Part shown: one piece after another, positions 31,553 through 50,165 of the stretch | Layout of the letters: every line of letters starts with the position of its first letter | Numbering within the stretch: position 1 is the first letter of the stretch | DNA from: an uncultured Candidatus Saccharibacteria bacterium | Lineage (GTDB): Bacteria > Patescibacteriota > Saccharimonadia > Saccharimonadales > JAGQNJ01 | Assembly (NCBI GenBank): GCA_964590205.1 | Contig: CAZPVO010000003.1 | Location: forward strand, 67,643 to 131,642 | DNA length: 64,000 nucleotides | Direction of reading: 5' to 3' | Program-made: the position numbers and the translations under genes | Notes under the pieces: generated by a model | Databases searched by the model: none | Seen by the model: only the letters and a program-made list of their open reading frames with translations | Told to the model about the DNA's origin: nothing

Positions 31553-34500
31553 CTATTGTTGAACTTGGTAGTTCATGATCACATCTGTTGAGGCTGGTGT
31601 TTCAAAGTAGATCGTGAAGTCTTTATCAGTGCTATCGACACGGTAGCGAGGCGCAAACGTATCCTTAGGCGTTAGTATGACAACTGGTTCACTACCCAGG
31701 TCGTATGGTTTCACGAAGGTAAACTTGAGCTGCGTCTGACCAGCTGGGATTGTCAGCGTTCCCCTAGTATCGGTATTGCCAAGCAAATGTCCCTGGATGG
31801 TAATGTTGCCGGCGAAGGTGGCGTTACCAGTAACTGTTAGTTGAGCTATTGTGGCCGCTCCAGTCACAGTCAGGTTGTGTACTGTCGCAGTACCTGAGAC
31901 ATTAAGGCTCGCGAAGTTGGTGTTGCCTTGGTTATTCTCAAGCGCACTCACACGTTGGCTCAAATCACTTATCTGTCCAGTAAGGTTACTAACACTGTTA
32001 TTTGAAGTTGTTTGCCCCTGCTGTAAGCCAGTTATTTGCAGGTCTTGCGTCTGAGCGGCACCAACCAGATAAGGGATGATTGCCTGGTAGTTGGCGACAT
32101 AGTAGCCGTTACTGTCTTGGGAAACAGCTTGAGGGAGTATTTGCATAAGCTCTTGGGCGATGAAGCCTTCTTGGTTCTTCTGTGTTGGATCATCATTCCA
32201 GGTAAAGTTCACACCTCGAAGCTGCTTAATAACATCGAGGCCATTGGCGATAGTTACTACATTACCCTTGAGCCGAGCGTCAGATGAACAGGCGAACTGA
32301 GTACCGGCGCCTGGGCTAATAGTACAAGTCTCGGCACCGGCGTTATTAAATTGCGCTACAGCACTACCACTGGTAGCTGCATTGGTAAAGGCAAAGACAT
32401 TTGAAGCATTAACACCCAAGGTAACATTGCCGTTATTAGCAGCATTTCGCCAGGCGATGTTGTTATTATTTTGAAGTCGCACTGCGCCTGCATCAGCACG
32501 ACTACTCCCTACCCCTAAGTATACCCCTGCGACCCACGCCCCGCCAGTTGAGGAAATGCCGCTAGCATTTGTCGTAATATTTCCGGCACTACTGATAGAA
32601 AAGTCAGTACCGACCGCAAAGGCATCATCGGTTTTAAGAGTATCAGCTGCACTGCGATATAGGTTGGTATCTCGTGATGAACCAAATGCCAGACCAGCAG
32701 CGGCACTTGTATTATCTGCGTCACTACCAACCCAAAGAGTTTGAGTCCGAGCCGTGCCAATTGCAATACCATAGTTTGTTCCGCTACCACTGTTAGACGC
32801 TCCAACCTTTATTCCATAATTAGTCGCGCCTGAGGTTAGGCCATCAATGTTAATGCCGTAGTTGTTGGTAACCACGGGTGCGCCATCAATAGTAGGGGCG
32901 TCGAGCTGAATACCATATATGTTAGACACTGTCAGACCCGAGCATAAGCCACTACATCCACCACTACCGCTGAGAGAAACTGTATTATGGAAGCCATACA
33001 TATTGGTTGTGGTGCTACCACTTATACCGAGGTTAGATACATTATTGCTAAATCCTGTATATGAAGCCATCGTGCCACTGCCCCCAATACTGCCTCCGAC
33101 ACCATAGCCATAGGCGTTGTCGGCAGTGGTAAGTGACATTGCAGCATAATAATTATAAGCGTTGCTTGTGCCCGCACCAGCATTGTCAGCTGAAACGTTC
33201 GAATAGACACCATACGTATTTGCGGTGCCACCAGTAGCACCTGTACGCGTAACATTTATCACTTGACCAAACGTTGTATCTGTACCGCTTGTCGTTACAC
33301 CAGTATTGTTTACAGTAGTCACTTGTCCTTGCAGCGATCCGGCAGTAGCACTTGCACTACTCTGAGTCACGTTCAACGGTGCTAAGCCAGACTTATTACC
33401 ATCACCTCCAAAAGATGAACTACCTTGCGCTGATAGACCTTGTCCAAACGATGCAGCACCCTGCACACTCAGATCACCGGCATCAGTAATGGTACCTTCG
33501 GTATAAAGTTGAGAGGCAGCAATACCACCGGCCGATAGCTGTTGGATATATGCTCCCCCCATATCGTAGATGCGCAAGTTACCATTTGCGTTCATATACG
33601 CATAGCGTCCAGCAACTTGTATGGTCTGAATAGCATTGCCGACGTTTGCGTTTGAAAGCACCGAAAAGGCATTGCTCGGTACGGTAACATCATAAACCGA
33701 GAAGCTTGTAGCAGCCGTGTTGCCGCCAAGATAGGCATAGTTACCTTGGACCCATATGGCCTGGTTTGTTGCACTACCGGTTGTGACGCTCTTAGTTAAG
33801 GTTGGCGCTGTCGGGTCACTAACATTTATAATTTCGAATTTACCACTGCTCTCACCAAGGTACGCATAGCTTCCTTTTACGAATATTGCATTCACGGCTG
33901 CGCCGATACCAGTGCCGGTTGTGCCATTGGTACCTGAAGAATTGATGAACCCGGTCGTAGTAACAGAGTAAGGATTAGAGATATCTGCGATGTATAGGTT
34001 AGTAGTTGTAGAGGTGTAATATATATATTTACCTTGGCCAAATATTTCACCATTACCGGATGCTACAGGTGTCCAGGTGCTCGTAACAGATGGAGATATT
34101 GGATTCGAAACATCCATTATTCTTACAACGCCACTACCCGTACTTATATAGGCATAGTGCCCTTGAACCCATATGCCGTTTGATGTTGCACCCCCATGAG
34201 CCGTTGTCGATACAATACTTGGCGACTTCGGATTACTAATATCAATGATCTGTAGGCTTGTAGAGGTGGCTACATAGGCATACTTACCTACCACTTGAAT
34301 CGATGTGGCAGTCCCAGTTAGCGCAGTAGAACCCAAATTAACCGGATTAGCTGGGTCAGAAATATCTTGTGGGACCAAAAAGGCACTCGTTATCGAATAG
34401 GCATAATTACCTTGAACCCATGTATCAATAGTACTCGCGAATGCAACCGAACCAATTTGCTGCGGGGCTGCCGCAAAGCTATTCTTAAATGTTGCGCCAG

Positions 34501-37500
34501 TACTGACATGCAGATCACCATCAATATTCACATTTCTATCGAAGTTTGCGCTACCTTGCACATCAAGTGACCCAACAATATGCGTGTTGCCGGCGGTAAG
34601 ACTGCCTCCAATACTGCCGGAAGGATCAGAACCCGAAGCATCCGACAAAGCTTGATTGCTCAGGCCAACCAGATCAAGCGAACCACCAACCAGTACACGG
34701 GCTGTGCTCGCGTAATAAATATTACTATATACAGTGCCCGATGATGCGTTAGCAGACGCACCGCCAAGACTATAGATATAGCCGTTGTCGGCTACACTTG
34801 CCTGACCAAGCAATGACTGAGGTAATGTATAGCTGGACGTCTGGAAAGTTCCCAGGGTTCCATCACCGTTAAGTTTGGCGTAGTAGATAGTGTTATTTGT
34901 GTTAGTTGAACCAGTGGTACTACCGCCAATAACATATACATACCCATTAACAAAGGCGCCCGAATGGTACTGACGGTTAGCAGGAAGTGTTGGTGTGCTT
35001 AGGGTTTGGACGTTACTGTTAGCACCAGTTAATGGATCAAGTGTCGTAGTAATAATGGTATTGTTTGCCCCACCACCAATAATGTAGGCCGTGTTATTGG
35101 CTACAACTACTGTGGCATTAGCGCGTCCGCCAACTGTCGTACCAGTATTCCACGCCGTAGCACTTGAACCATTGCCACCAAGACTACCGTCAGAGTTAAC
35201 CTTTGCGTAAAATAGGGCACCGGCACCTCCCGATGCAGAATAAATATAGCCATTAGCCGTAAAGACAACATGGCCAGACTTGGCAGTCAAACCACTAGTG
35301 TTGCCGCTTTGCCAGGCACCTGTCGAACCATCAGAGTTAATTTTTGCATAATAAACAGTCGTTTGGTTCGATCCGTTATTTGCAGCATGACCACTGACGA
35401 CATACATAAAACCGTTAACCACAACTGGATTGCCGAACTCTCCTCGCGCTGCTGGCAGTGACTGGGAAGCAGTTGTCCATGAGCCAGTTGAGCCATCAGC
35501 ATTAATTTTTGCATAGTACACAGCGGTTGTTGCGGCTGAGCCATTAGCAGTTGCAGTGAATCCGCCTACTGAATAGACATAGCCATTGTAGACAACTGAG
35601 CCATTACCATAAACGCTGGCTGGCAAGCTGTTGTTGTTCTTTTCCCATGGGCCAGTTTCACCGGTATTCTGGTTATTGAGTGTAATATGGTTCTGGAAAG
35701 CACCTACTTGTAGGTTTTGAGCGGGAGCTGTGTACGTAAGCCCTGTCGCTCCTGAGACAATCGTTACCCCATCAACAAAAATGTTTCGAGCAGTAGCGTC
35801 GCTTTGCTTAATATATGCACCTGCTACCGTCGTACCATTAGCGCCAGCAACAAGAGTAGAACATGTGAACAGCGTCCAGGTTGTGTTAAGGGTTTGGCCG
35901 GTAAGACAGTTAATGTCAGATCCATTGCTAGTGAGGCCTATCTGTGCCGTTGTCATGCTGCCGCTGTCGACACGAGCATAGAAGCTTACGCTGTAGGTGC
36001 CACCGGCTGGAAAGGCCAGGTTAAAGGTGGCTCCATCGTTGGCTGCTGCGGTGGTGGCAATCTTAAGAGATCGACTCCCGAAGTTGGATAAGCTGTCGTC
36101 ATCGGTAATGGTAGCGCTACCCTTGGCGGTAACAAGTGAAGTATTTTGTTCAAAGTTCGGGTTTCCAAACAGGTTCAGGCCACTCGTCAGCGTATTTATC
36201 TTCAAGATGTCTGCTCCAGAAGCATTATCTACCCTGAAAGCTGAAGTTGAATTTGCAGCGTTTTGGAACAAGGCCGAACCGTTATTGCCGCTGATGGTCA
36301 CTACCGTACTCTGGGCGTTCTGCGTACTACCAGTAGAGCCAGCCGCTGCAATCTTAATATTCACATCGCCACCATTACCGGTACCCGTGCCAACCCCGCC
36401 ATTTAGATTCAGTGCACCGCCAGTTGTATTAGAAAGACCACTGGCTGCATTGCCTCCTTGTACGCTAAGCGCTGCAGCTGTAACGCCTGCACTCGAACTG
36501 CCAGTTGCATTTAGCGTAAAGGCAGCTGGTGTTGCTGATGTAACACCGTTACCAAAGTAACCCGATGTTGCAGTACTGGAAGCAGCTTGTCCTAGCTGGA
36601 CAACTAACTGGTTAGCAGCTGTCGAGGCTGCTGATGCACCGAGTACTACGGTGTCGCTAAAGGCAGACGAAGCACTACCCCCCAAAATAACGTTTCTATT
36701 TACCGTACCACTGGCTGCCGCACTGGACCCGAGGATGACGCAGGTTGCACAGTTGCCACCACTAGCACTTGTGCCAATAATGACGTTACCCGCCGAAGAA
36801 CTGCCGGTTGCGCTAGTACCAATTACGACTGCGTTGCCACTTGGTGAAGTGGCACTATTTCCAATTACTACAGTGTTGTTACCGGCTGCTGTGGCGCCTG
36901 AACCAAAGCGTTCACTGCTACTACCTGCACCAGGACAGCTTAGGCTTCCATTAGTTCCACTAATCGTACAAGCTGTTGCCAAACTGTTTACCGAGGTGCC
37001 TGATGTACCTGCCGCAGAGTATTGAAAGATAATGTTACCACCCGCAACATTACCTGTACTCTGGCCACCGGCCAATATTAAGTCACCTCCTGCTGTGTTG
37101 CTTGTACCAGTTGTTGAGCTACCGGCTTGCAACTGAATAGCAGTACCTGCTCTACCGGCAGTGTTACTACCTTCGCCTGTAAGCGTAAACGAAGATGGAT
37201 TAAGTGCACCAGCTGTTGCCAGACCAAAGTACGCAGTATTACTGGTATCAAAAACCAGCCGGGTTATATTATTTGTTTTAATTGCCAGCGTATTGTTATC
37301 GAGCGTACCGAGTACTCCCGGCGTACTTGCCCCAAGCGTATTGCCACCTTGCGCCCAGTAAGTACCACTTGCCTGGTAGCCTGAGCAGACCGAACCAGTC
37401 GTACAAATTGTGCCGCTTTCATCTGGTAGCGTAAATGTTCTGCTTGCCGTAAAAGTATTGGCACCGAGTATCGATCCAATAAAGCCATTGCCAGCTGTAC

Positions 37501-40500
37501 TATCGTGAAAAGCCAAAATCCCTTTAATTGGTGTCGTATCGTTGCCAAGTGCTACACCAGGTACTATCCCGCTCGTAACAATAGTGAGAAGAGAAGCTCC
37601 ATCAGACCGTTTAACAGCAAACGCTGAAGCAGAGTCGACACTGTTTTGGAAAGTGGTCGCACCGCCAACTGCAATGGTTGCTTGGGTTACATTGTTAGTT
37701 TCAAACTTGAAGTTGTTGCTGTCGTTAGTACCAAGAATTACATCTGAACCGAAGCTATTACCGTTATTAAGAATGTCGCCTGTCCCACCAATTCCGGCAC
37801 AGTTACCACTGGTCAAACAAACCGTACCCGAAGCATTTGGCAAAGAAATAGCATACGTGCTTGAGCCTGGGTTAGATGCCGATAGACTAATCGAACCTGA
37901 GCCGCCTGAGTTATAGAATGTTAAGCTGCCGGTTGCACCTGAGGCTCGTCCAAAATAGAAGTTTCCACTTGCCGTAACACCAGAGACTGCATTGCCGCTA
38001 CTGTCTTGGAATTGCAACAAATCAGCCGTCTGGCTTGATTTAGCTTTTATAAGACCAGTGATGCTGCCAGTGGCAGAGCTTTGAACTGCAAAGTTTGCAT
38101 TGCTCTGAACAGTTGTCGAGTTATTAATGTAATTACCAGAGCCGCTCGACGATGCAAAACCACAATTGGTTGAGTTTTGTATACAAATTGTGCCGCTTTC
38201 GTCAGGCAGATTAATTGTTCGTGCACCGGTTGCAGCTACCACGCTTAGCGTTGTCGTATTAGAGTTTGAGCTATTATTGAAAACAAGCGTACCAGAGCTA
38301 GAAGATGCTTGGCCAAGTAAAACTGAGCCATTAGAGGTATTGGCAGTCAGAATGTTATCACCGAGCGACGTGAGGATCCTGAAGCCGGCCGATGAGTTAG
38401 TGCTATTCTGGAAGGTTGTAGCTCCCCCATTTGCGATGGTGACTTGTGTATTATTCCCTGTAATAAATTGTAGACTGTTTGCATCTGTTGTTCCGAGCTT
38501 GGCAGTTGCACTAAACGCATTTCCATTTTGAGTAAAGTAATTGCCGCTTGCTTGGTAGCCACTACAAACTGAACCAGTTGTACAAACAGTTCCATTTTCG
38601 GCAGGTAGTGTAATCGTATATGCAGTCGGCCCTGGATTTGCAGCATTGAGGGTTATTGAGCCAGCACCCGCGGCATTGTATAACAACAAACTACCCGATG
38701 TAGAACTTGCAGTACCTAATACTGCAGTGCCCGTTGGCACTGTCAACGTACTACCAACTATAAAGTTGCCATCTGTTTTTAGCGTGGCTGCTGCTGAACG
38801 ATATAAGTTTGTATCACGAGAAAGTCCGAATCCTATGCCAGCCGCAGCCGTCGTATTATCAGCATCACTCGAGAGCCAAAGGGTCTGAGTATCAGCAGTA
38901 CCGACTGCTATACCGTAGTCGACCGTTCCAGCCGTTTGCGGCTGTACATTAATACCAAAGTTAGTGCCAATGGTGCCGCCGCCACTATTAACTGCAGATA
39001 ATACGAGTTGACCAGCGGCATTGGTGATCGTACCTGATGAGGTATTACTAACAAGTGTGCCAAGACCTATTGCGCTTGTTACAGTACCACTAGCATTGTT
39101 ATCACTCAGAGCAAGCATTCCAAATTCAGAAGTAACAGAGCCAGCGCCGTTATTTCTTGCCCAACCTGACGTACCAATAACTGTACTGACCGCCCCCGTC
39201 GTGCTCACATTAGTTGTTCCAGCAGTTGAGGTATATACCCCTGAGTAGTTGATTCCTGATCCGGTCAAACCTAAACTACCATCCAAAGCTGTCGAAAAAA
39301 CCGTCGAATCAGAAGGAGGGCTTAGCGTAATCCAATCTTGGATACCTGTTACCGCACCACTAGTATTTGAATAGCTTTCCTTGGTTTGCACCAACACATT
39401 AGGACTAATAGAGGCATTGCCACCGACTGCAAGCTGACTGCCAACCGTAAGGTCATTATTAACATTTACATCACCCGATGAAGTCACAGTCAGTCTTGTG
39501 ATGTTATGAGTCTCGAAATTTAAATCATAGTTATCGTTTGTACCGATAGTAATAGCTGAGCCAAAAGCGTTACCACCATTGTTGATGTCACCGCTACCGC
39601 CACTACCATTACAGTTATTGGCGGTTGTGCAAATATCATACGTACCAGAACCTGCTGCCGTCGCAAATTTGTATGTTGTTGTTCCACCTGCCCCATCAGC
39701 TAACTTAAAGTAAATGTTTCCGTCTGTTCCAGTGAGACCACCTATTCCACTGCCCGCCGTACCAGCCTGGAACGTAATATTGCCCCCAGCACCATTGGTT
39801 GAGCCATTTGGTGCGTCACCGCCATTCCCGGCCTGCAAGCTGATAGACGAACCCGCACCACCGATTTGCCCGGTTCCTCCAACTGTATTGCCACCTTTAG
39901 CCCCCAGTACATTAAGAACTGGATCGGCATCTGTCCCGTCAGATCCCGAGTCATTTGGTGATGAACTATTAACTGTAAGCGTTGCTGAAGGAGTCCCCGC
40001 ACCAATAATTACCCTTTTATCAGTTGTATCGACAGTCAGAACATTAGACCCAGCAGTATTTTTAACCTGAAAGGCTGTACTACTATTGGTTGTTGGCGCC
40101 AATGTGAAGCGGTCAGTTATGATATCTCGAACATACTCGGTGCCGTAATAGGCTGTTGGCGAACCGATATTAGAACCAGTTACGGTGTCAGAAGCCGAAC
40201 CAAGGTTAGCAAAGCGTAGTCTTTGGTTGGATGCATCGTAGTAAGCCAACTGGGCGTAACCATCAGGGCCTATTGCAGCAGAAACATACTGACCAACATT
40301 CGCCGAACTGTCGACTGTTGAAATAGTTGGGTTGGCACAGGTTTTGTCATCACAAGAAGCAAATTTTAGAGTGTTAGGAGTAGTATCATAATATGCGATT
40401 TGTGGCACACCTTTGGCATTCAGCACAATACTTGTGGCTTGAGCATCGGAAGTGTTATCAACCGTTTGGGTCGTCTTGGATGAGCAAGCCGCATTAAGAC

Positions 40501-42430
40501 AGTTAATGTAGGTTAGGCGGCCTACGCCAGAACTCTGATAAGCAATGTGTGCCAAGTTGGCGTTATCAAGAACAATTGTGTTCCAGTCGCCAGACCCGCT
40601 CGCCGCATCAACCGTAGTTGTATTGCTTGTGGTACAGTTAGCATTCGTACATTGTACATACTGAAGCCCTCCTGGTTGCAAATGATAGGTTAGTCTTGCT
40701 GTATTATCAGAAGCTAAAGCTATCCCTGGTGCACCTGTATTATTACCACCGCTATTATTAATAACGGTAGAAACCGACGTGGAACAATCAGTTGCTGTAC
40801 ATCGAACAAACGTAAATGAAGTGTTTGCGCCGTTAAATAGAAACATCCGTGCCATTCCATCCGTGCCAACGGCAATTCTTGCCGAACGTTGAGTTAGATT
40901 ATTTGCCCCGCTCATAACTACTACTGGTGTAGTAGTAGTGCTACAGTCGGAATTACAACGTAAAAACTTAAACTGATCATTCAGCGAATCGTAGTAAACA
41001 ATGTGGATGTTATTGCTACTATCAAGTGCTGCTGAGGCATGCGAACCAATACTGCCTGTCGATTGAAGTGTCCGTTGTGTAATACTTGAACAAAGTGTGT
41101 CGTTACACTTGGTAAAGCCAAGATCTGCCGCTGTCGGTTTGAAGCTTATAATCCTGGCCAAGCCACTACTGTCAAGCAATATTGTGTCGTGCTGACCGTC
41201 ACGAACTGCAGATAGCGTAGTATTGTAAAAAGTGGTGGTAAGGTTCCCTGCTGTCAGAGGCACTAGCGAAGCTGTATTAACCGTACCCGTAGTTGTATTT
41301 ACGGTTAGTAAATTTACTCCTGCTGCATTTTGAACAGCAAATGCCTGGTTTGAGTTGGCTGCATTCTTAAAAGTTACTGCGCCACCAACTGCAAAAGTAG
41401 CCGCTGTTTGTCCATTGGTTCGAATCTGCAACGGATTACTGTCATTTGTTCCTAGAACTGCCGTTGCACCGTATTTGTTACCGCCTTGTAGAAAAGCCGT
41501 TGTCGAAATTTGAATGTTGACAGTATTACCACTTTGATTGGTGGTAAGAGTAATACCTGTTCCTTGTAGCAATTTAATAACTTGGGAGTTATCACCTGTA
41601 CCAAATGTCAGAGATACATCGCCTACTTGGCCGTTAATAGAACTAACGCTATCTTCTTGTGTTGTACTTGTAGCAACTTGGCTTTGGATCGGTACTGAGT
41701 TGCTTGATGCACAATTGTCTGAACTTAAACATATTTCGCCCGAGCTATTTGGCAAAGTATAGACTTGATCAGATGTTAACGCACTGGCGTCAAACTGTCC
41801 AAATACGGTGCCATTGGCTGTACCAATAAACAGCGAGCCCCGTGCAACAACGTCACCATTCACAATTAATTTATTTTTGCCGCCTTTAGACTGTAGAACT
41901 GATAAAACGTTCCCTGTATCTTCACCTAGAGTCAAACTTTGTTCATTCACCGAGCTAGATGGTGATTTAAGCTGACCGATGTTGCGGCGCGATATAAACC
42001 CTGTGACACCGACTAACGCAATTACAATCAGCATCGCCACACCGGTTATGATGTAAACAGCTTTATTGCGGCCAAGTCTTCGTGGGAATAACGGTGTTTT
42101 GGGTTCTGCAGCTGGAGTCTGAGCCGGCTGCGTAGCAGTAGATGCTCCCGAATTAGGGTCACCTAACGGAGGTGATGCTACCGGGTTGGATGTGACAACA
42201 GATTCACTTGGGGCTGATTCTAAAGAGTTAGCATCCGGAACAATTGGCGGTTCATAGCTGTTTGTTGCTGTTTGAGATGGAGGTGGTGTTACTGGTTGAG
42301 AAACTGATTGTGTACTAACGGATGCAGCAGCAGTTGGAGTTGAGGCACCTTGATACGAGGCCCCTTCCCCCTGCTGGGTAGGAGTAAAAACTGTGTTCGC
42401 AACTGGGGTATTTTTATCTTCGTTTTGCAT
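31553..42430 (-). CDS. giant (3625 aa) N-terminally membrane-anchored surface fibre/adhesin with Kelch and LVIVD propellers, a CBM4_9-like domain, tail-fibre-like repeats and a C-terminal Peptidase_S74 intramolecular chaperone domain
   Basis: Single uninterrupted ORF. aa 1-123 are S/T/P/A-rich, aa 124-146 form a TM helix, and the rest is G/S/T/N/A-rich with multiple internal repeat families (domain map in findings). All plus-strand ORFs inside are antisense artefacts. Confidence 0.9.
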   Translation of the reverse strand: MQNEDKNTPVANTVFTPTQQGEGASYQGASTPTAAASVSTQSVSQPVTPPPSQTATNSYEPPIVPDANSLESAPSESVVTSNPVASPPLGDPNSGASTATQPAQTPAAEPKTPLFPRRLGRNKAVYIITGVAMLIVIALVGVTGFISRRNIGQLKSPSSSVNEQSLTLGEDTGNVLSVLQSKGGKNKLIVNGDVVARGSLFIGTANGTVFGQFDASALTSDQVYTLPNSSGEICLSSDNCASSNSVPIQSQVATSTTQEDSVSSINGQVGDVSLTFGTGDNSQVIKLLQGTGITLTTNQSGNTVNIQISTTAFLQGGNKYGATAVLGTNDSNPLQIRTNGQTAATFAVGGAVTFKNAANSNQAFAVQNAAGVNLLTVNTTTGTVNTASLVPLTAGNLTTTFYNTTLSAVRDGQHDTILLDSSGLARIISFKPTAADLGFTKCNDTLCSSITQRTLQSTGSIGSHASAALDSSNNIHIVYYDSLNDQFKFLRCNSDCSTTTTPVVVMSGANNLTQRSARIAVGTDGMARMFLFNGANTSFTFVRCTATDCSTSVSTVINNSGGNNTGAPGIALASDNTARLTYHLQPGGLQYVQCTNANCTTSNTTTVDAASGSGDWNTIVLDNANLAHIAYQSSGVGRLTYINCLNAACSSKTTQTVDNTSDAQATSIVLNAKGVPQIAYYDTTPNTLKFASCDDKTCANPTISTVDSSANVGQYVSAAIGPDGYAQLAYYDASNQRLRFANLGSASDTVTGSNIGSPTAYYGTEYVRDIITDRFTLAPTTNSSTAFQVKNTAGSNVLTVDTTDKRVIIGAGTPSATLTVNSSSPNDSGSDGTDADPVLNVLGAKGGNTVGGTGQIGGAGSSISLQAGNGGDAPNGSTNGAGGNITFQAGTAGSGIGGLTGTDGNIYFKLADGAGGTTTYKFATAAGSGTYDICTTANNCNGSGGSGDINNGGNAFGSAITIGTNDNYDLNFETHNITRLTVTSSGDVNVNNDLTVGSQLAVGGNASISPNVLVQTKESYSNTSGAVTGIQDWITLSPPSDSTVFSTALDGSLGLTGSGINYSGVYTSTAGTTNVSTTGAVSTVIGTSGWARNNGAGSVTSEFGMLALSDNNASGTVTSAIGLGTLVSNTSSGTITNAAGQLVLSAVNSGGGTIGTNFGINVQPQTAGTVDYGIAVGTADTQTLWLSSDADNTTAAAGIGFGLSRDTNLYRSAAATLKTDGNFIVGSTLTVPTGTAVLGTASSTSGSLLLYNAAGAGSITLNAANPGPTAYTITLPAENGTVCTTGSVCSGYQASGNYFTQNGNAFSATAKLGTTDANSLQFITGNNTQVTIANGGATTFQNSTNSSAGFRILTSLGDNILTANTSNGSVLLGQASSSSGTLVFNNSSNSNTTTLSVVAATGARTINLPDESGTICIQNSTNCGFASSSGSGNYINNSTTVQSNANFAVQSSATGSITGLIKAKSSQTADLLQFQDSSGNAVSGVTASGNFYFGRASGATGSLTFYNSGGSGSISLSASNPGSSTYAISLPNASGTVCLTSGNCAGIGGTGDILNNGNSFGSDVILGTNDSNNFKFETNNVTQATIAVGGATTFQNSVDSASAFAVKRSDGASLLTIVTSGIVPGVALGNDTTPIKGILAFHDSTAGNGFIGSILGANTFTASRTFTLPDESGTICTTGSVCSGYQASGTYWAQGGNTLGASTPGVLGTLDNNTLAIKTNNITRLVFDTSNTAYFGLATAGALNPSSFTLTGEGSNTAGRAGTAIQLQAGSSTTGTSNTAGGDLILAGGQSTGNVAGGNIIFQYSAAGTSGTSVNSLATACTISGTNGSLSCPGAGSSSERFGSGATAAGNNTVVIGNSATSPSGNAVVIGTSATGSSSAGNVIIGTSASGGNCATCVILGSSAAASGTVNRNVILGGSASSAFSDTVVLGASAASTAANQLVVQLGQAASSTATSGYFGNGVTSATPAAFTLNATGSSSAGVTAAALSVQGGNAASGLSNTTGGALNLNGGVGTGTGNGGDVNIKIAAAGSTGSTQNAQSTVVTISGNNGSALFQNAANSTSAFRVDNASGADILKINTLTSGLNLFGNPNFEQNTSLVTAKGSATITDDDSLSNFGSRSLKIATTAAANDGATFNLAFPAGGTYSVSFYARVDSGSMTTAQIGLTSNGSDINCLTGQTLNTTWTLFTCSTLVAGANGTTVAGAYIKQSDATARNIFVDGVTIVSGATGLTYTAPAQNLQVGAFQNHITLNNQNTGETGPWEKNNNSLPASVYGNGSVVYNGYVYSVGGFTATANGSAATTAVYYAKINADGSTGSWTTASQSLPAARGEFGNPVVVNGFMYVVSGHAANNGSNQTTVYYAKINSDGSTGAWQSGNTSGLTAKSGHVVFTANGYIYSASGGAGALFYAKVNSDGSLGGNGSSATAWNTGTTVGGRANATVVVANNTAYIIGGGANNTIITTTLDPLTGANSNVQTLSTPTLPANRQYHSGAFVNGYVYVIGGSTTGSTNTNNTIYYAKLNGDGTLGTFQTSSYTLPQSLLGQASVADNGYIYSLGGASANASSGTVYSNIYYASTARVLVGGSLDLVGLSNQALSDASGSDPSGSIGGSLTAGNTHIVGSLDVQGSANFDRNVNIDGDLHVSTGATFKNSFAAAPQQIGSVAFASTIDTWVQGNYAYSITSAFLVPQDISDPANPVNLGSTALTGTATSIQVVGKYAYVATSTSLQIIDISNPKSPSIVSTTAHGGATSNGIWVQGHYAYISTGSGVVRIMDVSNPISPSVTSTWTPVASGNGEIFGQGKYIYYTSTTTNLYIADISNPYSVTTTGFINSSGTNGTTGTGIGAAVNAIFVKGSYAYLGESSGKFEIINVSDPTAPTLTKSVTTGSATNQAIWVQGNYAYLGGNTAATSFSVYDVTVPSNAFSVLSNANVGNAIQTIQVAGRYAYMNANGNLRIYDMGGAYIQQLSAGGIAASQLYTEGTITDAGDLSVQGAASFGQGLSAQGSSSFGGDGNKSGLAPLNVTQSSASATAGSLQGQVTTVNNTGVTTSGTDTTFGQVINVTRTGATGGTANTYGVYSNVSADNAGAGTSNAYNYYAAMSLTTADNAYGYGVGGSIGGSGTMASYTGFSNNVSNLGISGSTTTNMYGFHNTVSLSGSGGCSGLCSGLTVSNIYGIQLDAPTIDGAPVVTNNYGINIDGLTSGATNYGIKVGASNSGSGTNYGIAIGTARTQTLWVGSDADNTSAAAGLAFGSSRDTNLYRSAADTLKTDDAFAVGTDFSISSAGNITTNASGISSTGGAWVAGVYLGVGSSRADAGAVRLQNNNNIAWRNAANNGNVTLGVNASNVFAFTNAATSGSAVAQFNNAGAETCTISPGAGTQFACSSDARLKGNVVTIANGLDVIKQLRGVNFTWNDDPTQKNQEGFIAQELMQILPQAVSQDSNGYYVANYQAIIPYLVGAAQTQDLQITGLQQGQTTSNNSVSNLTGQISDLSQRVSALENNQGNTNFASLNVSGTATVHNLTVTGAATIAQLTVTGNATFAGNITIQGHLLGNTDTRGTLTIPAGQTQLKFTFVKPYDLGSEPVVILTPKDTFAPRYRVDSTDKDFTIYFETPASTDVIMNYQVQQ

Positions 42431-43794: not shown

Positions 43795-46704
43795 CTAGGC
43801 TTTTGCTAAAGCGATGGCTAGTTCAGCTCCCTCAACTTTTACCGAAGTTTCAAACTGTTTAGGCGGAGTTTTGACTAAACTTTTGGCCAAAACTTCTTGT
43901 TTTATGGTATCTTCGTGCTCTTCTATGGCCTTTGCCAACTCTTTGTCATCTGTTAGTAACGACACCGTTATGCGGTCATCGACATTCAAACCGGCTTGCT
44001 TGCGTGCACTCTGAATATTTCGGATAACTTCGCGCATTAACCCTTCTCGTTTTAGAACTGGAGTTAATCTTGTATCCAGTACAACAGATGGGTTAGGACC
44101 ACCTCCGACTTCACTAGCCGTTTTACTTGTAACTTTCTTAACATTTAGCTCTTCCTTGGCAATTTCAGCAAACTGATCATAGTATTCCTTCGCATCTACG
44201 GTATCAAATACGTTTACTAAAACTGCCTCAGTTAAAGGTTGGCGAACTTTGAGTTTAGCTTCGGCTCGCTTGGCGAGTCCATCAGTAATTGCGTCACGTA
44301 ACTTTTGCATTTCATCTATTAAAAGTTCGTTGATGTGGCCGACCTCTGGCCAGTCCAGCAAATGAACTGATTCCTCACCAGTGAGGTTACGGTATAGTTC
44401 TTCGCTCAAGAACGGTGTAAATGGCGCAAAAATTATTGCAACTTGAGTCAAGACATAGTGCAAAGTCTTGTATGCATCGTTCTTATCGGTGTCATTATCG
44501 CTCTTCCAGAAGCGTTTACGACTTCGGCGAACATACCAGTTACTGGCATCATCAACAAATTCTAGCATCGGTTTCATGGCATTTGGAATATCATAGCGCT
44601 GCATATGCCCGTCTACTTCTTTAGTCAACTGATGTACCCTGGAAACTACCCACTGATCAAGAGGGTTTTTAAGTTCTCCCGATGGATCTTCAAGCTTACC
44701 GTCCCATTCCCAACCATCAACATCGGCGTACATCGTAAAGAAGTCGTACATGTTCCAGATCATAGCCAATTTACGCTGCACATCCGCCACATCTTTGTCC
44801 TGCAGCGAGAAATCTTCACCGTTCAACAGAGTTGAACTGAGTAGTAAAAATCGCAAAGCATCAGCTGAATACATATCCATCAGCTCATTCGGATCGGTGT
44901 AGTTACCAAATTGCTTACTCATTTTGCGGCCATCATTACCTGCTAACGTCCCCGTTACGATGACATTGCTAAAAGCGTTTTTATCAAACAGACCTACGCC
45001 AACAGCGTGTAAGTAATAAAACCAGGCTCGCACCTGACCAACATACTCGGCGATAAAGTCAGCCGGGTAGCTTTGTTCAAACTTCTCAACATTTTCAAAT
45101 GGATAATGAAATTGTGCAAACGGCATGCTTCCAGATTCAAACCAGCAGTCCAAAACTTTGTCTATTCGAGTGTATTTGACGCCATCTATTGTAAATGTAA
45201 CATCATCTATCCACGGACGATGGTAGTCATCTAACTCAATACCGCTTAACTCCTTGAGTTCAGCGTAGCTGCCAACAACTTTGATGTGTTCTTTACCACT
45301 TTTATCTTTCCCTTTCCAAACAGGCATGGCTGTTGCCCAAAAACGGTCACGGCTTAAGTTCCAATCCGGTGCACTCTCAACTGTCTTAGCAAACCGCCCT
45401 TGCTTAACGTGCTCTGGAAACCAATGGATCGGGCTATTATCCTCAAGCATCTTCTCTTTCTGCCCCTGAATATCCAAGAACCAACTCGGGTGAGCCCGGT
45501 ATATCAACTTTGAATGACAGCGGTGACAGTGCGGATAGCTGTGGGTATAGTAGTAAATTCGGAGGGCTTTTCCCTGGCTCAAGAAGTTTTTAGCAATCTC
45601 TTTGTCAACATCCCAAACCTGTTTACCCTTCCAGTCACTCTCTGTTAGAAAGCCATTATCATCAATAACTGCTACCACTGGAAATTTCTTTTCTTGTGAC
45701 AGCTGATAATCTTCTTCACCATAAGCCGGCGCTTGAGAAACTATACCTGTGCCTTCCTCCATGCTGACAAACCAGGCATCGTAAATCTTATGGGCACCCT
45801 CACCCCAATCTTTGTAGTAAGGTTCGTAAGATCTGCCGACTAGCTCTTTACCCTTTAGTTCCCTCACTGTCTTGTACTCCAGGGGCTGATGTTTTTCATC
45901 TTGAAGGACTTCTGTGACTAAATCCTTTGCCAAGATGTACTTGTCTTTACCGACTTCAACTTCTGCGTAAGTAGCATCCTTATCGACAGCCAGACCAGTA
46001 TTAGCCAGTAGCGTCCATGGAACAGTTGTCCATACTAACAGATAAGTATCGCTGTCTTTCAATTTAAATTTGGCATATAGTGAAGGGTCGGTAACATCCT
46101 GGTATGAGTTATCCATGGCCACCTCAGCCTTGCTGATGGGTGTAGCATCGCGAATACAATACATAAGCACCTTTTCGCCCTCATAGATTTTGCCACGCTC
46201 ATACAGCTTCTTAAAAGCCCACCAGACGGATTCCATGTAATCTTTGTCCATGGTTTTGTAGGCACCCTTAAAATCAACCCAGCGGCCAATCCGATCAATA
46301 GTATCTTCCCAAAGAGATCCAGTCTGCACCATATTATCGCGACATGTGGTGATGTACTCTTCCAGGCTAACCTTTGTGCCGATGTCACGCTTATCAACAA
46401 TTCCGAGCTTTTTCTCTGTAAATACTTCAGCTGGAAGGCCGTGACAATCCCAACCCCAGACACGTTCAACACGCTTGCCTTTCATGGTCCAATAGCGTGG
46501 TACAGCATCTTTAACGATGGAGCTCAATAATGTTCCATGATGCGGCACCCCTGTTATAAACGGCGGGCCATCATAAAAAACATAACTATTAGATTGGGGT
46601 CGATTTTCGACAGACTTCTCAAAGGTCTTGTTGTCTTTCCAGTGAGTGACAAGATCTTTTTCGTATTCGATTGCTTTGCGACGACTTCCCTGTTTGAACT
46701 TCAC
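43795..46704 (-). CDS. ileS: isoleucyl-tRNA synthetase (eukaryote-like type 2)
   Basis: FYDGPPFITGVPHHGT (HIGH), WDCHGLP and KMSKQ. GTG start at 46704..46702, preceded by SD AAGAGG. 969 aa. Confidence 0.95.
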   Translation of the reverse strand: MKFKQGSRRKAIEYEKDLVTHWKDNKTFEKSVENRPQSNSYVFYDGPPFITGVPHHGTLLSSIVKDAVPRYWTMKGKRVERVWGWDCHGLPAEVFTEKKLGIVDKRDIGTKVSLEEYITTCRDNMVQTGSLWEDTIDRIGRWVDFKGAYKTMDKDYMESVWWAFKKLYERGKIYEGEKVLMYCIRDATPISKAEVAMDNSYQDVTDPSLYAKFKLKDSDTYLLVWTTVPWTLLANTGLAVDKDATYAEVEVGKDKYILAKDLVTEVLQDEKHQPLEYKTVRELKGKELVGRSYEPYYKDWGEGAHKIYDAWFVSMEEGTGIVSQAPAYGEEDYQLSQEKKFPVVAVIDDNGFLTESDWKGKQVWDVDKEIAKNFLSQGKALRIYYYTHSYPHCHRCHSKLIYRAHPSWFLDIQGQKEKMLEDNSPIHWFPEHVKQGRFAKTVESAPDWNLSRDRFWATAMPVWKGKDKSGKEHIKVVGSYAELKELSGIELDDYHRPWIDDVTFTIDGVKYTRIDKVLDCWFESGSMPFAQFHYPFENVEKFEQSYPADFIAEYVGQVRAWFYYLHAVGVGLFDKNAFSNVIVTGTLAGNDGRKMSKQFGNYTDPNELMDMYSADALRFLLLSSTLLNGEDFSLQDKDVADVQRKLAMIWNMYDFFTMYADVDGWEWDGKLEDPSGELKNPLDQWVVSRVHQLTKEVDGHMQRYDIPNAMKPMLEFVDDASNWYVRRSRKRFWKSDNDTDKNDAYKTLHYVLTQVAIIFAPFTPFLSEELYRNLTGEESVHLLDWPEVGHINELLIDEMQKLRDAITDGLAKRAEAKLKVRQPLTEAVLVNVFDTVDAKEYYDQFAEIAKEELNVKKVTSKTASEVGGGPNPSVVLDTRLTPVLKREGLMREVIRNIQSARKQAGLNVDDRITVSLLTDDKELAKAIEEHEDTIKQEVLAKSLVKTPPKQFETSVKVEGAELAIALAKA

Positions 46705-46924
46705 GTTTCTTACCTCTTAAAAAATAAAAAGCCCCTGATCTTGTAGGAGCCAGCAAGCTGACGGTACCATCCTACTTTGGGACTTAATTGCGGGACGATT
46801 ACGGGCCCTACCGGTTAGGTTCTACTGAGCTTTAATAAACTGTTCTTCCTACTCCTCGTGGTTGATAGCCACTGATAACGGATTTACAGCTAAATATACG
46901 CTAAAGCTAAGGATAGAGCAATAC
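46705..46924 (-). promoter_or_regulatory. putative T-box riboswitch leader of ileS (antiterminator/terminator)
   Basis: On the minus strand, AAUUAAG...GUAGGAUGGUACCGUCAG resembles the T-box core AGGGUGGNACCGCG. It can fold as helix GUAGGA/UCCUAC, a 7-nt bulge UGGUACC and helix GUCAG/CUGGC. An overlapping terminator GCUCCU-acaagauc-AGGGGC plus U9 follows, then the SD and GTG. A candidate AUC-A specifier sits in a GUGG/CCAC hairpin upstream. Confidence 0.5.
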
Positions 46925-47188
46925 TCAAGCGGCCAGAAAACCAACGACATCATTAACTACTGGTAGCGGCGTACCGATCCAGCTTCGAGCCAATTGCCCA
47001 TCATCACGAACCGCTAGAACTGTTGGATATTGCATCACGTCGTACAGCTTAGCCATCTCTGACCCCGCTGGTGAATCAACATCGATAAGTTCACATTCAT
47101 AAGAGCTGTGGCGCTCAAAATCATGGGCAAACTCTTCCACGGCTCGCGCAAACTCAGAATCTGGCCGGTAGAGAATAATTGCTTTCAT
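46925..47188 (-). CDS. small thioredoxin-fold-like protein lacking CxxC (hypothetical)
   Basis: 87 aa, with a YPTVLAVRDDGQ cis-Pro-like segment but no CxxC. Neighbour of nrdJ. Confidence 0.3.
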   Translation of the reverse strand: MKAIILYRPDSEFARAVEEFAHDFERHSSYECELIDVDSPAGSEMAKLYDVMQYPTVLAVRDDGQLARSWIGTPLPVVNDVVGFLAA

Positions 47189-47393: not shown

Positions 47394-50165
47394 TCAGGAG
47401 CAGCCAGTTGTAGAGCCACATGAGGTACAGACATAGCAGCTGCCTGCTTTTTGGGTCTGATTACCACAGTTGTAGCACATCGGTGCGGCATCATCCTGAC
47501 GGCTTGTTTCTTTCTTAGCCGGCTTGCTTGTTTGTACTCTTGGAACTTCTACGAGCTTTGGCTGTTCTTCTTTCTCAACCTTAACCTCAGGAACTTCAAC
47601 TTTTTCTTCGAGTAAACTGGTTTGCACATCTGGCATGTCATCGATAGAGGCCAGGCCAAGCTCCAACTGATCATCGAACGACAGATAGGTTTTACCTAAT
47701 CGACGGAAGACATAGTCAACGAGTGAACTGGCAGTACGAATCTCTTTGTCATCTGTTACACCAGCTGGCGCAAAGGCCATGTTTGTTAAGCCATACACGT
47801 AACTCTTTAGAGGTACACCGTACTGCAAACCGTAGCTCACAGAGATAGCCAGCGAATCCATGATGCCAGCCAAGGTTGAACCCTGCTTGGCAATTTGCAT
47901 GAAGACTTCACCAGGGGTACCATCTTCGTACTCACCCACTGTTACGAAACCTTTGCTACCACCAACAGTGAAGGCAAATGTTTTGGCGTTACGTACTTTT
48001 GGTAGTGGACGGCGCATAGCACCCTTAACGATGATCTTGTCGTTAATAGATTCAGCACTAGCTGGCTCTTCTTTTTTGTCGCCTTCTTTCTTAGCCATTG
48101 ACAGTGGTTGCGCAACTTTACAGTTGTCCCGGTAAATTGCCACGGCTTTCAGACCAAGTTTCCAGGCTTCGATGTGTAATTGTTCAACATCTTCAACAGT
48201 AACTTCTTCCGGCATATTCACTGTTTTACTGATCGCACCAGAGATAAATGGCTGCACAGCACCCATCATCTTAACGTGACCCATATAGTGAATAGGGTTA
48301 TCGCCCATTGAGCAAGAAAATACCGCCTTGTGCTCTTCTTTAAGATGTGGCGCACCGGTGATAGTTTTCTCTACATCGATATAGTTGATGATGTCGTCAA
48401 TTTGGTCCTTACTGTAACCAAGTGTCTTCAGAGCCCGTGGCACCGTTTGGTTAACAATATGCATTGTTCCACCACCGACAAGTTTCTTCACCTTAACAAG
48501 ACCAAGATCTGGCTCAATACCAGTGGTATCACAATCCATCATCAGACCAATGGTTCCAGTTGGAGCCAGTACACTGGCCTGCGAGTTGCGAACACCGTGC
48601 ATTTCACCCAGTTCAACTGCATCATCCCAAGAGGCAGCTGCAGCACTCAAAAGTTCCTCTGATACTAAACTAGCATCAATCTTTGAGACTTCCCCTCTAT
48701 GCATTTTCAGTACGTTTAGCATTCCTTCGCGGTCCTTATGAAAACCAGCAAATGGTCCAACCCGCTCAGCAATACGCGCACTGGTAGCGTAGGCGTGACC
48801 TGTCATTAACGCTGTAACAGCGGCAGCAAGTGCACGACCTTCGTCTGAATCATACGGTAAGCCAAGAGCCATCAATAACGCGCCAAGGTTAGCGTAGCCA
48901 AGACCAAGCTCTCGATAAGCTCGAGCATTCTTAGCAATTCCCTCTGTCGGATATTCAGAATAGCCAACTAGAATTTCCTGCGCTGTAAACATAATCTTCA
49001 CTGTATGCTTGAAAGCTTCAATGTCGAATGTCTGATCATCTCGAAGGTACTTCAACAGGTTAATTGAAGCTAGGTTACAGGCTGAATTGTCCAAGTGCAT
49101 ATACTCGCTACAGGGGTTGCTGGCGTTAATGCGGCCAGCATTTGGCGCAGTATGCCACTTGTTGATGATAGTGTCGAATTGCATACCAGGATCAGCACAC
49201 TCCCAGGCAGCTTCAGCAATCTGGCGAAAGATGTTTCGAGCCTTAACTGTTTTAACTGGTTTGTTAGTCTTGACCGCCGTTAAGTCCCAGTCTTCATCGT
49301 TGATAACTGCATTCATAAAGTCATCGGTAACACGAACTGAGTTATTGGCGTTTTGATACTGAACAGAGAAGGAATCCTTACCATCGAGGTTCATGTCAAA
49401 GCCAGCTTCCTGAAGCACGCGCGCTTTGCGCTCTTCAATCGCCTTACACCAGATAAACTCTTCAACATCAGGGTGGGCAACATTCAAAATAACCATCTTG
49501 GCTGCTCGGCGAGTTTTACCACCGCTCTTGATAGCACCAGCAGAGCTGTCGGCGCCACGCATGAAGCTCAGTGGGCCAGATGCAGTGCCAGCGCTCTTAC
49601 CGAGTGTTTCATGAGACGAACGAAGCACACTTAGGTTGATTCCCGAACCAGAGCCACCCTTAAAGATCATTCCTTCTTCGCGGTACCAGTTAAGAATTGC
49701 TGGCATGGTATCCTCGATGCCAAGAATGAAACAAGCACTTGCCTGTTGAGAGCGAGCTGGTGCACCAATGTTAAACCACACTGGTGAGTTAAATGCAGCT
49801 CGTTGGGTTGCGAGGATGTATTTTAGTTCTTCTCTAAATGATTCTGCTTCGGTATCAGATTCAAAGTAACCTTCTTTTTGACCATGGCGAGTGATGGTAT
49901 CAGCTACTCGATCGATAAGTTTTTGGAGCGAATCCTCTCGCTCGTCGGTACCAGGTGTACCGGTGAAATATTTTTGGGCAACGATGTTAATTGCATTCAA
50001 CGACCAAAAATCCGGGAATTCAATATCATTTTGTTCGAAAACCGGCTTATTAGTCATTGGATTCATGATAAGTGAATCTCTTGAAACCCACGTCAGTTGA
50101 TCGTAGGCTTTGGTTTTGGGTTGGGTGAATAACCTCCCAACCGTTAATTTGGCTGTATGTCCCAT
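47394..50165 (-). CDS. nrdJ: adenosylcobalamin-dependent ribonucleotide reductase (class II, NrdJ)
   Basis: Active-site region PCSEYMHLDNSACNLASINL and a C-terminal Cys-rich zinc ribbon (CYNCGNQTQKAGSCYVCTSCG). 923 aa. Confidence 0.9.
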   Translation of the reverse strand: MGHTAKLTVGRLFTQPKTKAYDQLTWVSRDSLIMNPMTNKPVFEQNDIEFPDFWSLNAINIVAQKYFTGTPGTDEREDSLQKLIDRVADTITRHGQKEGYFESDTEAESFREELKYILATQRAAFNSPVWFNIGAPARSQQASACFILGIEDTMPAILNWYREEGMIFKGGSGSGINLSVLRSSHETLGKSAGTASGPLSFMRGADSSAGAIKSGGKTRRAAKMVILNVAHPDVEEFIWCKAIEERKARVLQEAGFDMNLDGKDSFSVQYQNANNSVRVTDDFMNAVINDEDWDLTAVKTNKPVKTVKARNIFRQIAEAAWECADPGMQFDTIINKWHTAPNAGRINASNPCSEYMHLDNSACNLASINLLKYLRDDQTFDIEAFKHTVKIMFTAQEILVGYSEYPTEGIAKNARAYRELGLGYANLGALLMALGLPYDSDEGRALAAAVTALMTGHAYATSARIAERVGPFAGFHKDREGMLNVLKMHRGEVSKIDASLVSEELLSAAAASWDDAVELGEMHGVRNSQASVLAPTGTIGLMMDCDTTGIEPDLGLVKVKKLVGGGTMHIVNQTVPRALKTLGYSKDQIDDIINYIDVEKTITGAPHLKEEHKAVFSCSMGDNPIHYMGHVKMMGAVQPFISGAISKTVNMPEEVTVEDVEQLHIEAWKLGLKAVAIYRDNCKVAQPLSMAKKEGDKKEEPASAESINDKIIVKGAMRRPLPKVRNAKTFAFTVGGSKGFVTVGEYEDGTPGEVFMQIAKQGSTLAGIMDSLAISVSYGLQYGVPLKSYVYGLTNMAFAPAGVTDDKEIRTASSLVDYVFRRLGKTYLSFDDQLELGLASIDDMPDVQTSLLEEKVEVPEVKVEKEEQPKLVEVPRVQTSKPAKKETSRQDDAAPMCYNCGNQTQKAGSCYVCTSCGSTTGCS

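Follow-up and report, generated by a model that had tools for sequence, protein, structure and literature searches.

T-box leaders have been listed in surveys for Firmicutes, Actinobacteria, Chloroflexi, Deinococcus-Thermus and two deltaproteobacteria (PMC2494555). Canonical transcriptional T-boxes (RF00230), such as those of tyrS and glyQS of Bacillus subtilis, precede genes of aminoacyl-tRNA synthetases (aaRS) and carry a long Stem I and, between the helices A1 and A2, a bulge of 7 nucleotides (nt); as a rule, the terminator takes its 5' strand from the 3' strands of A1 and A2, and the motif 5'-RRRxG–Stem III–AA-3' has been defined (PMC7583486). The actinobacterial ileS T-boxes, 'translational' T-boxes of class II that include those of Mycobacterium tuberculosis (PDB 6UFG) and Nocardia farcinica (PDB 6UFM), have a truncated Stem I with the specifier near its apex, and the lost contact to the tRNA elbow is compensated by a Stem II S-turn and a Stem IIA/B (PMC7583486, PMC11297988); the AGUA/GAA motif of the S-turn and a 21-nt IIA/B are described for ileS T-boxes (PMC7583486). 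Here we analyse a stretch of 64,000 nt from an uncultured Candidatus Saccharibacteria bacterium (contig CAZPVO010000003.1; the window, below), in which the leader of ileS, the gene of isoleucyl-tRNA synthetase (IleRS), is in our reading probably a T-box that senses tRNA-Ile and controls ileS by transcription attenuation, with a terminator that encloses the acceptor-binding hairpin.

The leader fills a 220-nt gap on the minus strand (46705..46924) between an open reading frame (ORF) of 87 amino acids (aa) at 46925..47188 and an ORF of 969 aa that starts with GTG at 46704. The sequence features quoted in a first-pass annotation of this gap, which had proposed a T-box upstream of ileS, are all present on the minus strand at the positions given there; they include the Shine-Dalgarno (SD) sequence AAGAGG and the GTG start, and the protein encoded downstream is an IleRS:

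43795..46704, minus strand: ileS, the regulated gene, encoding a 969-aa isoleucine-tRNA ligase (TIGR00392, E=9.4e-235, 781.7 bits versus a cutoff of 621.4)
46702..46718, minus strand: SD sequence AAGAGG (46713..46718) and GTG start (46702..46704) of ileS, unpaired in all predicted folds

For comparison, 80 related loci were retrieved with the IleRS protein; nearly all are from Candidatus Saccharibacteria or Saccharimonadales and their IleRS proteins are 64–73% identical to the one in the window. The sequence GAUGGNACC is found within about 240 nt (mostly 60–140 nt) upstream of ileS in 61 of these loci, and three more have a variant in which one base of the bulge differs. A covariance model built from the 5' half of the element, R1, matches in 75 of the 80 loci, where the element precedes ileS or a short ileS operon: among the 16 loci in which the motif search had found no element, R1 places the T-box further upstream in 11, and it leaves only five loci without it (L009, L010, L012, L016 and L022). 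In the window, the only genuine R1 match is at 46780..46894 (78 bits, E=1e-18). A second match at 17090..17191 (13 bits) lies inside the coding sequence of a class II aaRS and was dismissed as a chance match. Metagenomes, scanned with a composite pattern, contain at least 120 contigs with the element; among the matches listed (120 contigs), the AUC hairpin described below is present in 109 and an IleRS gene lies downstream in 95, with 13 contigs being too short to tell.

The part of the leader that would receive the acceptor end of the tRNA has the following features:

46743..46775, minus strand: T-box acceptor-binding hairpin, composed of A1, bulge and A2 with the A2 loop CUUG, aligning to the T-box core of RF00230
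46743..46775, minus strand: helix A1, GUAGGA (46770..46775) paired with UCCUAC (46743..46748)
46763..46769, minus strand: 7-nt bulge UGGUACC
46749..46762, minus strand: helix A2, GUCAG (46758..46762) paired with CUGGC (46749..46753)
46776..46790, minus strand: linker CAAUUAAGUCCCAAA, in which AAG (46783..46785) corresponds to the RRR of 5'-RRRxG–Stem III–AA-3' and AAA to its 3' AA

Covariation in this part was scored on a MAFFT alignment of 42 leaders that contain Stem III (alignment A1), which had not been fitted to a structure. Helix A1 is 99.2% paired with compensatory changes in four of its six pairs, helix A2 is 95.2% paired with compensatory changes in four of five, and UGG, A and C of the bulge are invariant; the antiterminator elements of the first-pass annotation are present and, at 95–99% pairing, held in common with the relatives. 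Only the fourth base of the UGGN part varies: it is U in the window and in most leaders, C in L007, L017, L018 and L033, A in L003, L008, L077 and L080, and G in L027. Set against base 73 of tRNA-Ile, this variation would be a clean test of covariation, or else indicate that the leader can do without the pair. ARAGORN found no tRNA gene in the 64-kb window or in 200 ileS-centred loci (1.28 Mb), with the program verified on a control tRNA; this complete absence of tRNAs is noteworthy, though ileS neighbourhoods are redundant.

In the 42 relatives, AAG.G and AA on the two sides of Stem III are invariant or nearly so, the structure of the Stem III state is 91% paired and Stem III covaries; 42 to about 60 relatives have the complete motif. 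These leaders thus have the RRRxG–Stem III–AA motif in common with the canonical T-box, in addition to the position before an aaRS gene, the order A1/7-nt bulge/A2, the terminator with its U-run and RF00230 matches with E of about 1e-4. The linker of the window, AAGUC-CC-AAA, has no Stem III hairpin, and the RRRxG–Stem III–AA module is not formed there. The window shares this lack of Stem III with ten genome loci and with six further distinct sequences from metagenomes.

Upstream of the linker lies the decoding domain:

46858..46872, minus strand: Stem I, 15 nt, a hairpin of 4 base pairs (bp), GUGG/CCAC, with the 7-nt loop CUAUCAA (covariation and conservation)
46864..46866, minus strand: specifier AUC in the Stem I loop, followed by A46863 (conservation)
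46816..46851, minus strand: Stem II, with the lower helix UAGG/CCUA, an internal loop of S-turn type, AAGAAC opposite CAGUAGAA (GAA/AGUA motif), and an upper helix whose loop varies (covariation)
46793..46813, minus strand: Stem IIA/B pseudoknot, 21 nt, with IIA formed by CGG (46811..46813) and CCG (46802..46804) and IIB by the loop GGGC (46805..46808) and GUCC (46793..46796)

Here a second MAFFT alignment was used, of 43 leaders (alignment A2) and likewise not fitted to any structure. Stem I, of which the same hairpin is found in about 60 genome loci, is 99.4% paired and has compensatory changes in all four pairs. The lower and upper helices of Stem II are 98.8% and 88.3% paired, again with compensatory changes in all pairs, and GAA and AGUAGAA of the internal loop are invariant or nearly so. 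Helix IIA is 97.7% paired, and taken together the helices of the decoding domain have compensatory changes in 14 of 17 pairs, with slid controls reaching only 27–41% pairing. IIB, when read from the MAFFT columns, appears only 55% paired because of gap placement and was therefore examined with an alignment-free permutation test: the complementarity between the IIB loop and the downstream strand covaries (GGGC/GUCC, AGC/GCU, CGCU/AGCG, GUGA/UCAC), and 0 of 2000 permutations reach the observed score. The F-box-like sequence CCGUAA is found inside the pseudoknot.

The AUC of the Stem I loop is invariant and the A that follows it is conserved in at least 90% of the leaders, while loop positions 1, 2 and 7 vary, leaving AUC as the sole fixed triplet; the proposal of the first-pass annotation that AUC plus A (46863..46866) in the GUGG/CCAC loop is the specifier is thus well founded. 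The 7-nt loop is also shaped like an anticodon loop (Y-U-NNN-A-N), as would be expected of a protein operator, for example a tRNA-like mimic bound by IleRS in its own leader in the manner of Escherichia coli ThrRS. However, the loop carries the codon AUC and not the anticodon GAU, and the remaining leader matches T-box modules, including the UGGN bulge. We find an operator of this kind scarcely credible.

Judged by its sequence and covariation, the decoding domain is of the actinobacterial ileS type, with a short Stem I that has no tRNA-elbow platform and is backed by Stem II and IIA/B. Likened by published descriptions and not by sequence alignment, the two have in common the target ileS, the AUC followed by A, the truncated Stem I without elbow platform, the AGUA/GAA S-turn of Stem II, the 21-nt IIA/B pseudoknot and a UGGN-ACC bulge between A1 and A2. 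In contrast to the actinobacterial class, the output is an intrinsic terminator with a U-tract rather than an SD sequestrator, the host is a Saccharibacterium and, in the window, Stem III is missing. The canonical architecture assumed in the first-pass annotation does not apply: there is no distal platform of Stem I (AG bulge and distal loop, the interdigitated T-loops of which stack on the tRNA elbow in T-boxes with a long Stem I) in the window or in any relative inspected, and the window has no Stem III. Unlike the canonical T-box, which has a Stem I of about 80–100 nt with AG bulge and distal loop, the Saccharibacteria have a Stem I of 15 nt; RF00230 matches are at 12–36 bits versus 93, the terminator takes its 5' strand from Stem III or, probably, from the purine linker, and the closing pair of A2 in the window is G-C and not G·U.

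Outside the conserved modules, some leaders have lineage-specific extra hairpins that leave these modules undisturbed: between Stem I and Stem II (L001, L003, L005, L015, L023, L024, L043, L061, L064, L065, L074), inside Stem III (L037, L045, L062) and in the A2 loop (L036, L056).

A first alternative is that there is no riboswitch at all, and that the ordinary terminator of the upstream unit of nrdJ and the 87-aa ORF happens to be accompanied by T-box-like words. Three results obtained from the window are in line with this and speak against a T-box: RF00230 scores 12.2 bits (E=2) in a permissive search, versus a gathering score of 93; the core motif AGKRTGGNACC, which occurs once in the window, has at least one match in 23 of 100 shuffles; and the fold of the whole leader is no more stable than that of shuffles (z=0.10). 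At the gathering thresholds, Rfam had no match in the window or in 18 relatives. That the element is above chance follows from conservation and covariation in the relatives. Its modules are conserved and covary in the 75 genomes and in more than 100 contigs from metagenomes, in every case preceding ileS or an ileS operon, and the element stays with ileS where the upstream genes differ. In addition, there is no space for a promoter between the U-tract and the SD sequence of ileS, and ileS is therefore transcribed only through the terminator. Kinship among leaders inflates controls that are based on shuffling; against an artefact speak the slid-partner controls and the large number of independent pair types, and an alignment artefact of recent descent is unlikely, too, given the IleRS identities of 65–73% and the compensatory changes. 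We consider the absence of a riboswitch to be extremely unlikely.

RF00230 aligns to the leader of the window end to end over the model, with 9 nt in place of the distal Stem I of about 80 nt, and the best relatives reach 36.2 and 34 bits (E=2e-4 and 7e-4). The gathering threshold of this family is operational, tuned to T-boxes with a long Stem I, and not a mechanistic feature. The first-pass annotation had coupled two observations as grounds for giving up the T-box, no RF00230 match above threshold and no conserved architecture: the first was indeed made (12.2 bits versus 93), while the architecture proved to be conserved. Features typical of a T-box that are present are a specifier matched to the regulated gene, covarying helices on both sides of a UGGN bulge, Stem II and a IIA/B pseudoknot; absent are an Rfam score above threshold and the long Stem I and, in the window, also Stem III and the G·U pair. 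In our view the leader is almost certainly a T-box, and with the covarying helices, the RF00230 matches of relatives and the presence in 75 of 80 genomes the main proposal of the first-pass annotation, a tRNA-Ile-sensing T-box leader of ileS, has been borne out.

The question of how the tRNA signal is converted into expression involves the following features at the 3' end of the leader:

46779..46785, minus strand: AAGUCCC, 5' strand of the enclosing terminator helix, overlapping the purine string (fold of minimum free energy, MFE)
46729..46736, minus strand: terminator 3' strand AGGGGCUU, with the possible partners AAGUCCC (enclosing) or GCUCCU at 46745..46750 (canonical)
46719..46730, minus strand: U-tract UUUUUAUUUUUU, 12 nt (terminator scan)
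46731..46750, minus strand: canonical terminator, GCUCCU (46745..46750) – ACAAGAUC – AGGGGC (46731..46736), also found by the terminator scan

In nearly all leaders, a helix followed by a U-run forms the end, 10–40 nt before the start codon, and the output is therefore transcription termination and not SD sequestration. A translation-acting T-box like the actinobacterial ileS leaders, in which hairpin and U-run would mask or expose the ribosome-binding site, deserves consideration as a short Stem I with Stem II and IIA/B is the hallmark of translational ileS T-boxes (PMC1262725, PMC11297988, PMC7583486). One leader, L046, is without a U-run, and the 5' strand of its Stem III has complementarity to the start of ileS. 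However, the SD-sequestering output of class II ileS T-boxes is not seen here: AAGAGG and the GTG lie outside every predicted helix, and a stable hairpin abuts a 12-nt U-tract, as it abuts a U-run in nearly all relatives. Attenuation by transcription termination is thus very probable and a translational switch very unlikely. The first-pass annotation had the terminator ending 10 nt before the SD sequence; instead, the U-tract runs straight into it.

L046 (2265-2500) is the sole leader of its kind: the Stem III 5' strand CUUUAUGAG is complementary to CUCAUGAAG at the ileS start, and GCCGGA, which adjoins the SD sequence, could replace the A1 5' strand. From these complementarities, L046 may be a translational variant. 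Attenuation by a leader peptide was rejected: the sole ORF starts at an AUG within GGAUGG and has neither an SD sequence nor a run of Ile codons.

The terminator is best seen in the relatives. In about 60 relatives with Stem III, the partner of the strand before the U-run is formed by the Stem III loop and 3' strand and not by the 3' strands of A1 or A2; in L039, for instance, Stem III is AAAAGAA-UCAC-UUCUUUU and the terminator AAUCACUUCUUUU/AAAAGAAGUGAUU. This outer helix has compensatory changes in 12 of 12 core pairs, the structure of the terminator state is 86.7% paired versus 33–52% in slid controls (42 relatives), and terminator 3' strands pair far better with their own partners than with swapped ones. 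The MFE fold retains all of A1 in each of the 49 loci with Stem III and gains 10–21 enclosing pairs reaching into the U-tract. As a duplex with the 3' strands of A1/A2, the terminator strand has a mean energy of −4.1 kcal/mol, versus −16.4 kcal/mol with Stem III, and a canonical partner for the terminator strand is absent in all 49.

In the window, which has no Stem III, the corresponding enclosing helix is AAGUCCC/GGGGCUU. Its predicted fold is the MFE (−18.6 kcal/mol), compared to −11.4 kcal/mol for the antiterminator alone and −9.4 kcal/mol for the best fold with the canonical terminator. Pairing was counted in 17 distinct sequences of the type of the window from anchored strands rather than from the MAFFT alignment: the enclosing helix is fully paired (7/7) in 16, and the canonical pairing GCUCCU/AGGGGC is broken in five, which are five of the six that vary there. 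The enclosing helix is part of the MFE fold in all 11 sequences of this type that come from genomes; in L020, the MFE swaps A1 for another pairing at 0.1 kcal/mol below the enclosing fold. L008, again without Stem III, has an enclosing helix of unrelated sequence (AGCUUCUAC/GUAGAAGCU) and no canonical alternative.

The first-pass annotation had described a canonical switch, in which GCUCCU leaves the antiterminator and pairs with AGGGGC; AAGUCCC/GGGGCUU would then be incidental or auxiliary. This is the textbook mechanism (PMC7583486). The GCUCCU/AGGGGC hairpin does exist and is detected by the terminator scan, and both strands are conserved in leaders of the window type, with an apparently compensatory change from G-C to A-U in L031; this change is explained equally well by A2 pairing (U·G to U-A). 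Two related leaders, L064 and L115, are clearly canonical with a terminator of 10 bp, CCGGACUCUC/GAGAGUUCGG, but the 49 Stem III-containing relatives have no such partner. Against the mutually exclusive switch in the window, the state at −9.4 kcal/mol is no more stable than the antiterminator at −11.4 kcal/mol, functional T-boxes have a much more stable terminator, and the pairing is broken in most of the sequences that vary. A T-box with a canonical switch is possible but doubtful. For the window we lean towards the enclosing rather than the canonical helix as the operative terminator, and in the predicted folds the hairpin of A1, bulge and A2 appears to stay intact inside the terminator and not to be replaced by it.

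L064 is the sole clearly canonical T-box among the genome loci, and an RNase P RNA (RF00010, 220.9 bits) lies directly upstream at 1720-2212. In four AT-rich metagenome contigs (L097, L122, L139, L107), a further type of platform without Stem III was noted by eye: the strand before the U-run (GUCGGU, CUCGG) pairs with the A1 5' strand (ACCGA, CCGAG) and competes with the A1 3' strand. With enclosing, canonical and A1-5'-strand-competing platforms among the relatives, the expression platform is evolutionarily plastic. An additional pairing in the window, of AAGUCCC with the IIA loop GGGC as a surrogate Stem III, is possible there, is inconsistent across relatives and was discarded.

The enclosing terminator suggests the following mechanism. 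The minimal decoding domain, whose structure is supported by covariation, would present AUC to the anticodon GAU of tRNA-Ile, and the uncharged 3' ACCA end would be bound by UGGU in the bulge between A1 and A2. In solved T-boxes, the purine linker docks on the duplex of tRNA end and bulge, and by analogy with established T-box biology the AAG purines would here dock in the minor groove. Uncharged tRNA-Ile would lock A1 and keep the purine linker docked; both 5' partners of GGGGC would then be occupied, and RNA polymerase would read through. With charged tRNA or without tRNA, the linker or Stem III would be mobile, the closing helix would form at the U-tract and transcription would stop. In this OFF state of the window, energy and conservation predict that GGGGCUU before the U-tract pairs with AAGUCCC, including the AAG of the purine linker, and one long hairpin that still holds A1, bulge and A2 would end transcription 12 nt before the SD sequence. 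In the relatives, the terminator 3' strand is nearly a copy of the Stem III 5' strand and would compete for the Stem III 3' strand by strand exchange, with docking probably holding Stem III closed against invasion by the terminator strand.

Single-molecule fluorescence (smFRET) experiments on the M. tuberculosis ileS T-box showed that charged tRNA undocks linker and Stem III, and such work has singled out this docking as the step that responds to aminoacylation (PMC12647780). The antisequestrator of M. tuberculosis is rearranged on a large scale (PMC12647780), whereas the OFF structure here appears to keep A1/A2 intact.

In addition to the low Rfam score and the frequency of the core motif in shuffles, several points weigh against this explanation. 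The bare-duplex energies of the 3' strand in the window are nearly equal for the canonical (−10.7 kcal/mol) and the enclosing partner (−11.0 kcal/mol), which also favours a canonical switch. Changes in the enclosing helix of the window-type sequences are one-sided only, mediated by G·U, with no double compensatory change, and all folds are equilibrium thermodynamic predictions, not co-transcriptional ones. Stem III is reported to be indispensable for binding of the tRNA 3' end in glyQS (PMC7583486), and the window has none. The closing pair of A2 in the window is G46762–C46749 and not the conserved G·U that is the 'steric sensor' of the aminoacyl group; the A2 pair adjoining the bulge is G·U in 16 of the 42 relatives, G-C in 10, A-U in 10 and U-A in 6. 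That a tRNA-bound purine linker blocks the enclosing helix, we infer from structure; likewise, we infer the pairing with the anticodon and discriminator (A73) of tRNA-Ile. All in all, we see an even chance that the saccharibacterial ileS T-boxes use a platform new for T-boxes, with a terminator that encloses the acceptor hairpin by taking the Stem III 3' strand or, in the window, the purine linker, and a switch that reads the docking of Stem III or linker on the tRNA end.

Features at the start of the leader are:

46893..46921, minus strand: putative promoter, TTGCTC (46916..46921), 17-nt spacer and TATATT (46893..46898), as read from the sequence
46873..46885, minus strand: 5' flank of Stem I, AAAUCCGUUAUCA, of which AAAUCC is kept in many relatives

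From the putative promoter, the transcript start would be predicted near 46885..46887. A consensus promoter scan of the leader made no call for TTGCTC/TATATT, and the -35 hexamer has only three matches out of six; many relatives have TATAAT or TATAGT at an equal distance upstream of the element. In many of them (L007, L018, L031, L040, L047 and others), ACAAUUUGG-N-AAAUCC follows directly after the TATAAT/TATAGT box, where the RNA is predicted to begin, and the window retains only the AAAUCC part of this block (46880..46885). Relatives have GA directly 5' and 3' of the 4-bp Stem I (the 5' A being invariant and the 3' A conserved in at least 90%); the window has CA on the 5' side. A K-turn-like GA motif may form the base of Stem I, with the 5' flank as its bulged strand. 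Possible C-stems beside Stem I, for example UCC/GGA or CAUUC/GAAUG, were seen in relatives.

In 11 loci, passenger genes separate the element from ileS, at a distance of 400–1700 nt upstream. Five of these loci have a GNAT acetyltransferase (by Pfam in L017 and L030, judged from the sequence in L019, L027 and L054); other passengers are a methyladenine glycosylase (Pfam), a cupin (weak Pfam match), a NUDIX-like protein (by eye) and other small genes. Loci with passenger genes are L017:1059-1613, L027:1950-2504, L030:876-1406, L019:1881-2504 and L054:1498-2504, and further L077:1872-2432, L044:2151-2504 and L078:1684-2504. The passenger genes would be co-regulated by tRNA-Ile. The link between GNAT and IleRS is possibly functional, because the NCBIfam model NF040702 is an IleRS fused to a GNAT domain.

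In L171, L182 and about 20 other metagenome loci (e.g. L085, L092, L131), the same T-box precedes an IleRS that is 37–48% identical to that of the window and has a different N-terminus; the leaders of L171 and L182 belong to the subtype without Stem III, like the window. From these sequences, the leader seems either to have outlasted a change of the IleRS type or to have undergone transfer independently of the gene.

The 87-aa ORF at 46925..47188 (minus strand), between nrdJ and the T-box, has no Pfam or NCBIfam match and is conserved (MK.l.LYRP.SE...); it abuts ileS, at a distance of about 40 nt, in four of the five loci without a T-box (L009, L010, L012 and L022). Further upstream lies nrdJ, encoding a B12-dependent ribonucleotide reductase (47394..50165), and a 3625-aa ORF (31553..42430, minus strand) lies close downstream of the ileS–rplU region. 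The class II aaRS gene mentioned above (16612..17862, minus strand; tRNA-synt_2b and HGTP_anticodon) has no T-box upstream. The ileS leader is the sole T-box match in the 64-kb window, which fits the pattern known from Chloroflexi and Deinococcus, where ileS is likewise the target that persists where T-boxes are few (Wels et al. 2008, PMC2494555).

No mention of a T-box in Saccharibacteria, Patescibacteria or the candidate phyla radiation was found in the full-text literature, the coverage of which is incomplete, so that an earlier mention is possible; in the TBDB preprint, the short-Stem-I model was applied only to Actinobacteria. Out of the ordinary here are the host phylum, the compactness and the probable enclosing terminator, while the T-box identity itself is ordinary. 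From Stem I to the U-tract, the element is about 154 nt long and would be among the smallest complete T-boxes. Such a very compact tRNA-responsive switch might lend itself to engineering, and the R1 covariance model would improve annotation. IleRS is the target of mupirocin, and for this reason the regulation of IleRS in oral TM7 bacteria is of possible practical interest.

The combination of a decoding domain of the translational class with a terminator breaks the scheme in which a long Stem I means transcriptional and a short Stem I translational control. If the enclosing platform is true, co-transcriptional decisions can be driven by a decoding domain with a short Stem I, and a discriminator without Stem III can function; a confirmed enclosing terminator would also be a natural experiment to tell in which part of the discriminator the aminoacylation signal resides. 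With a near-universal ileS T-box in Saccharibacteria, the T-box family extends to the candidate phyla radiation, and these epibionts with reduced genomes keep at least one RNA sensor of amino-acid supply.

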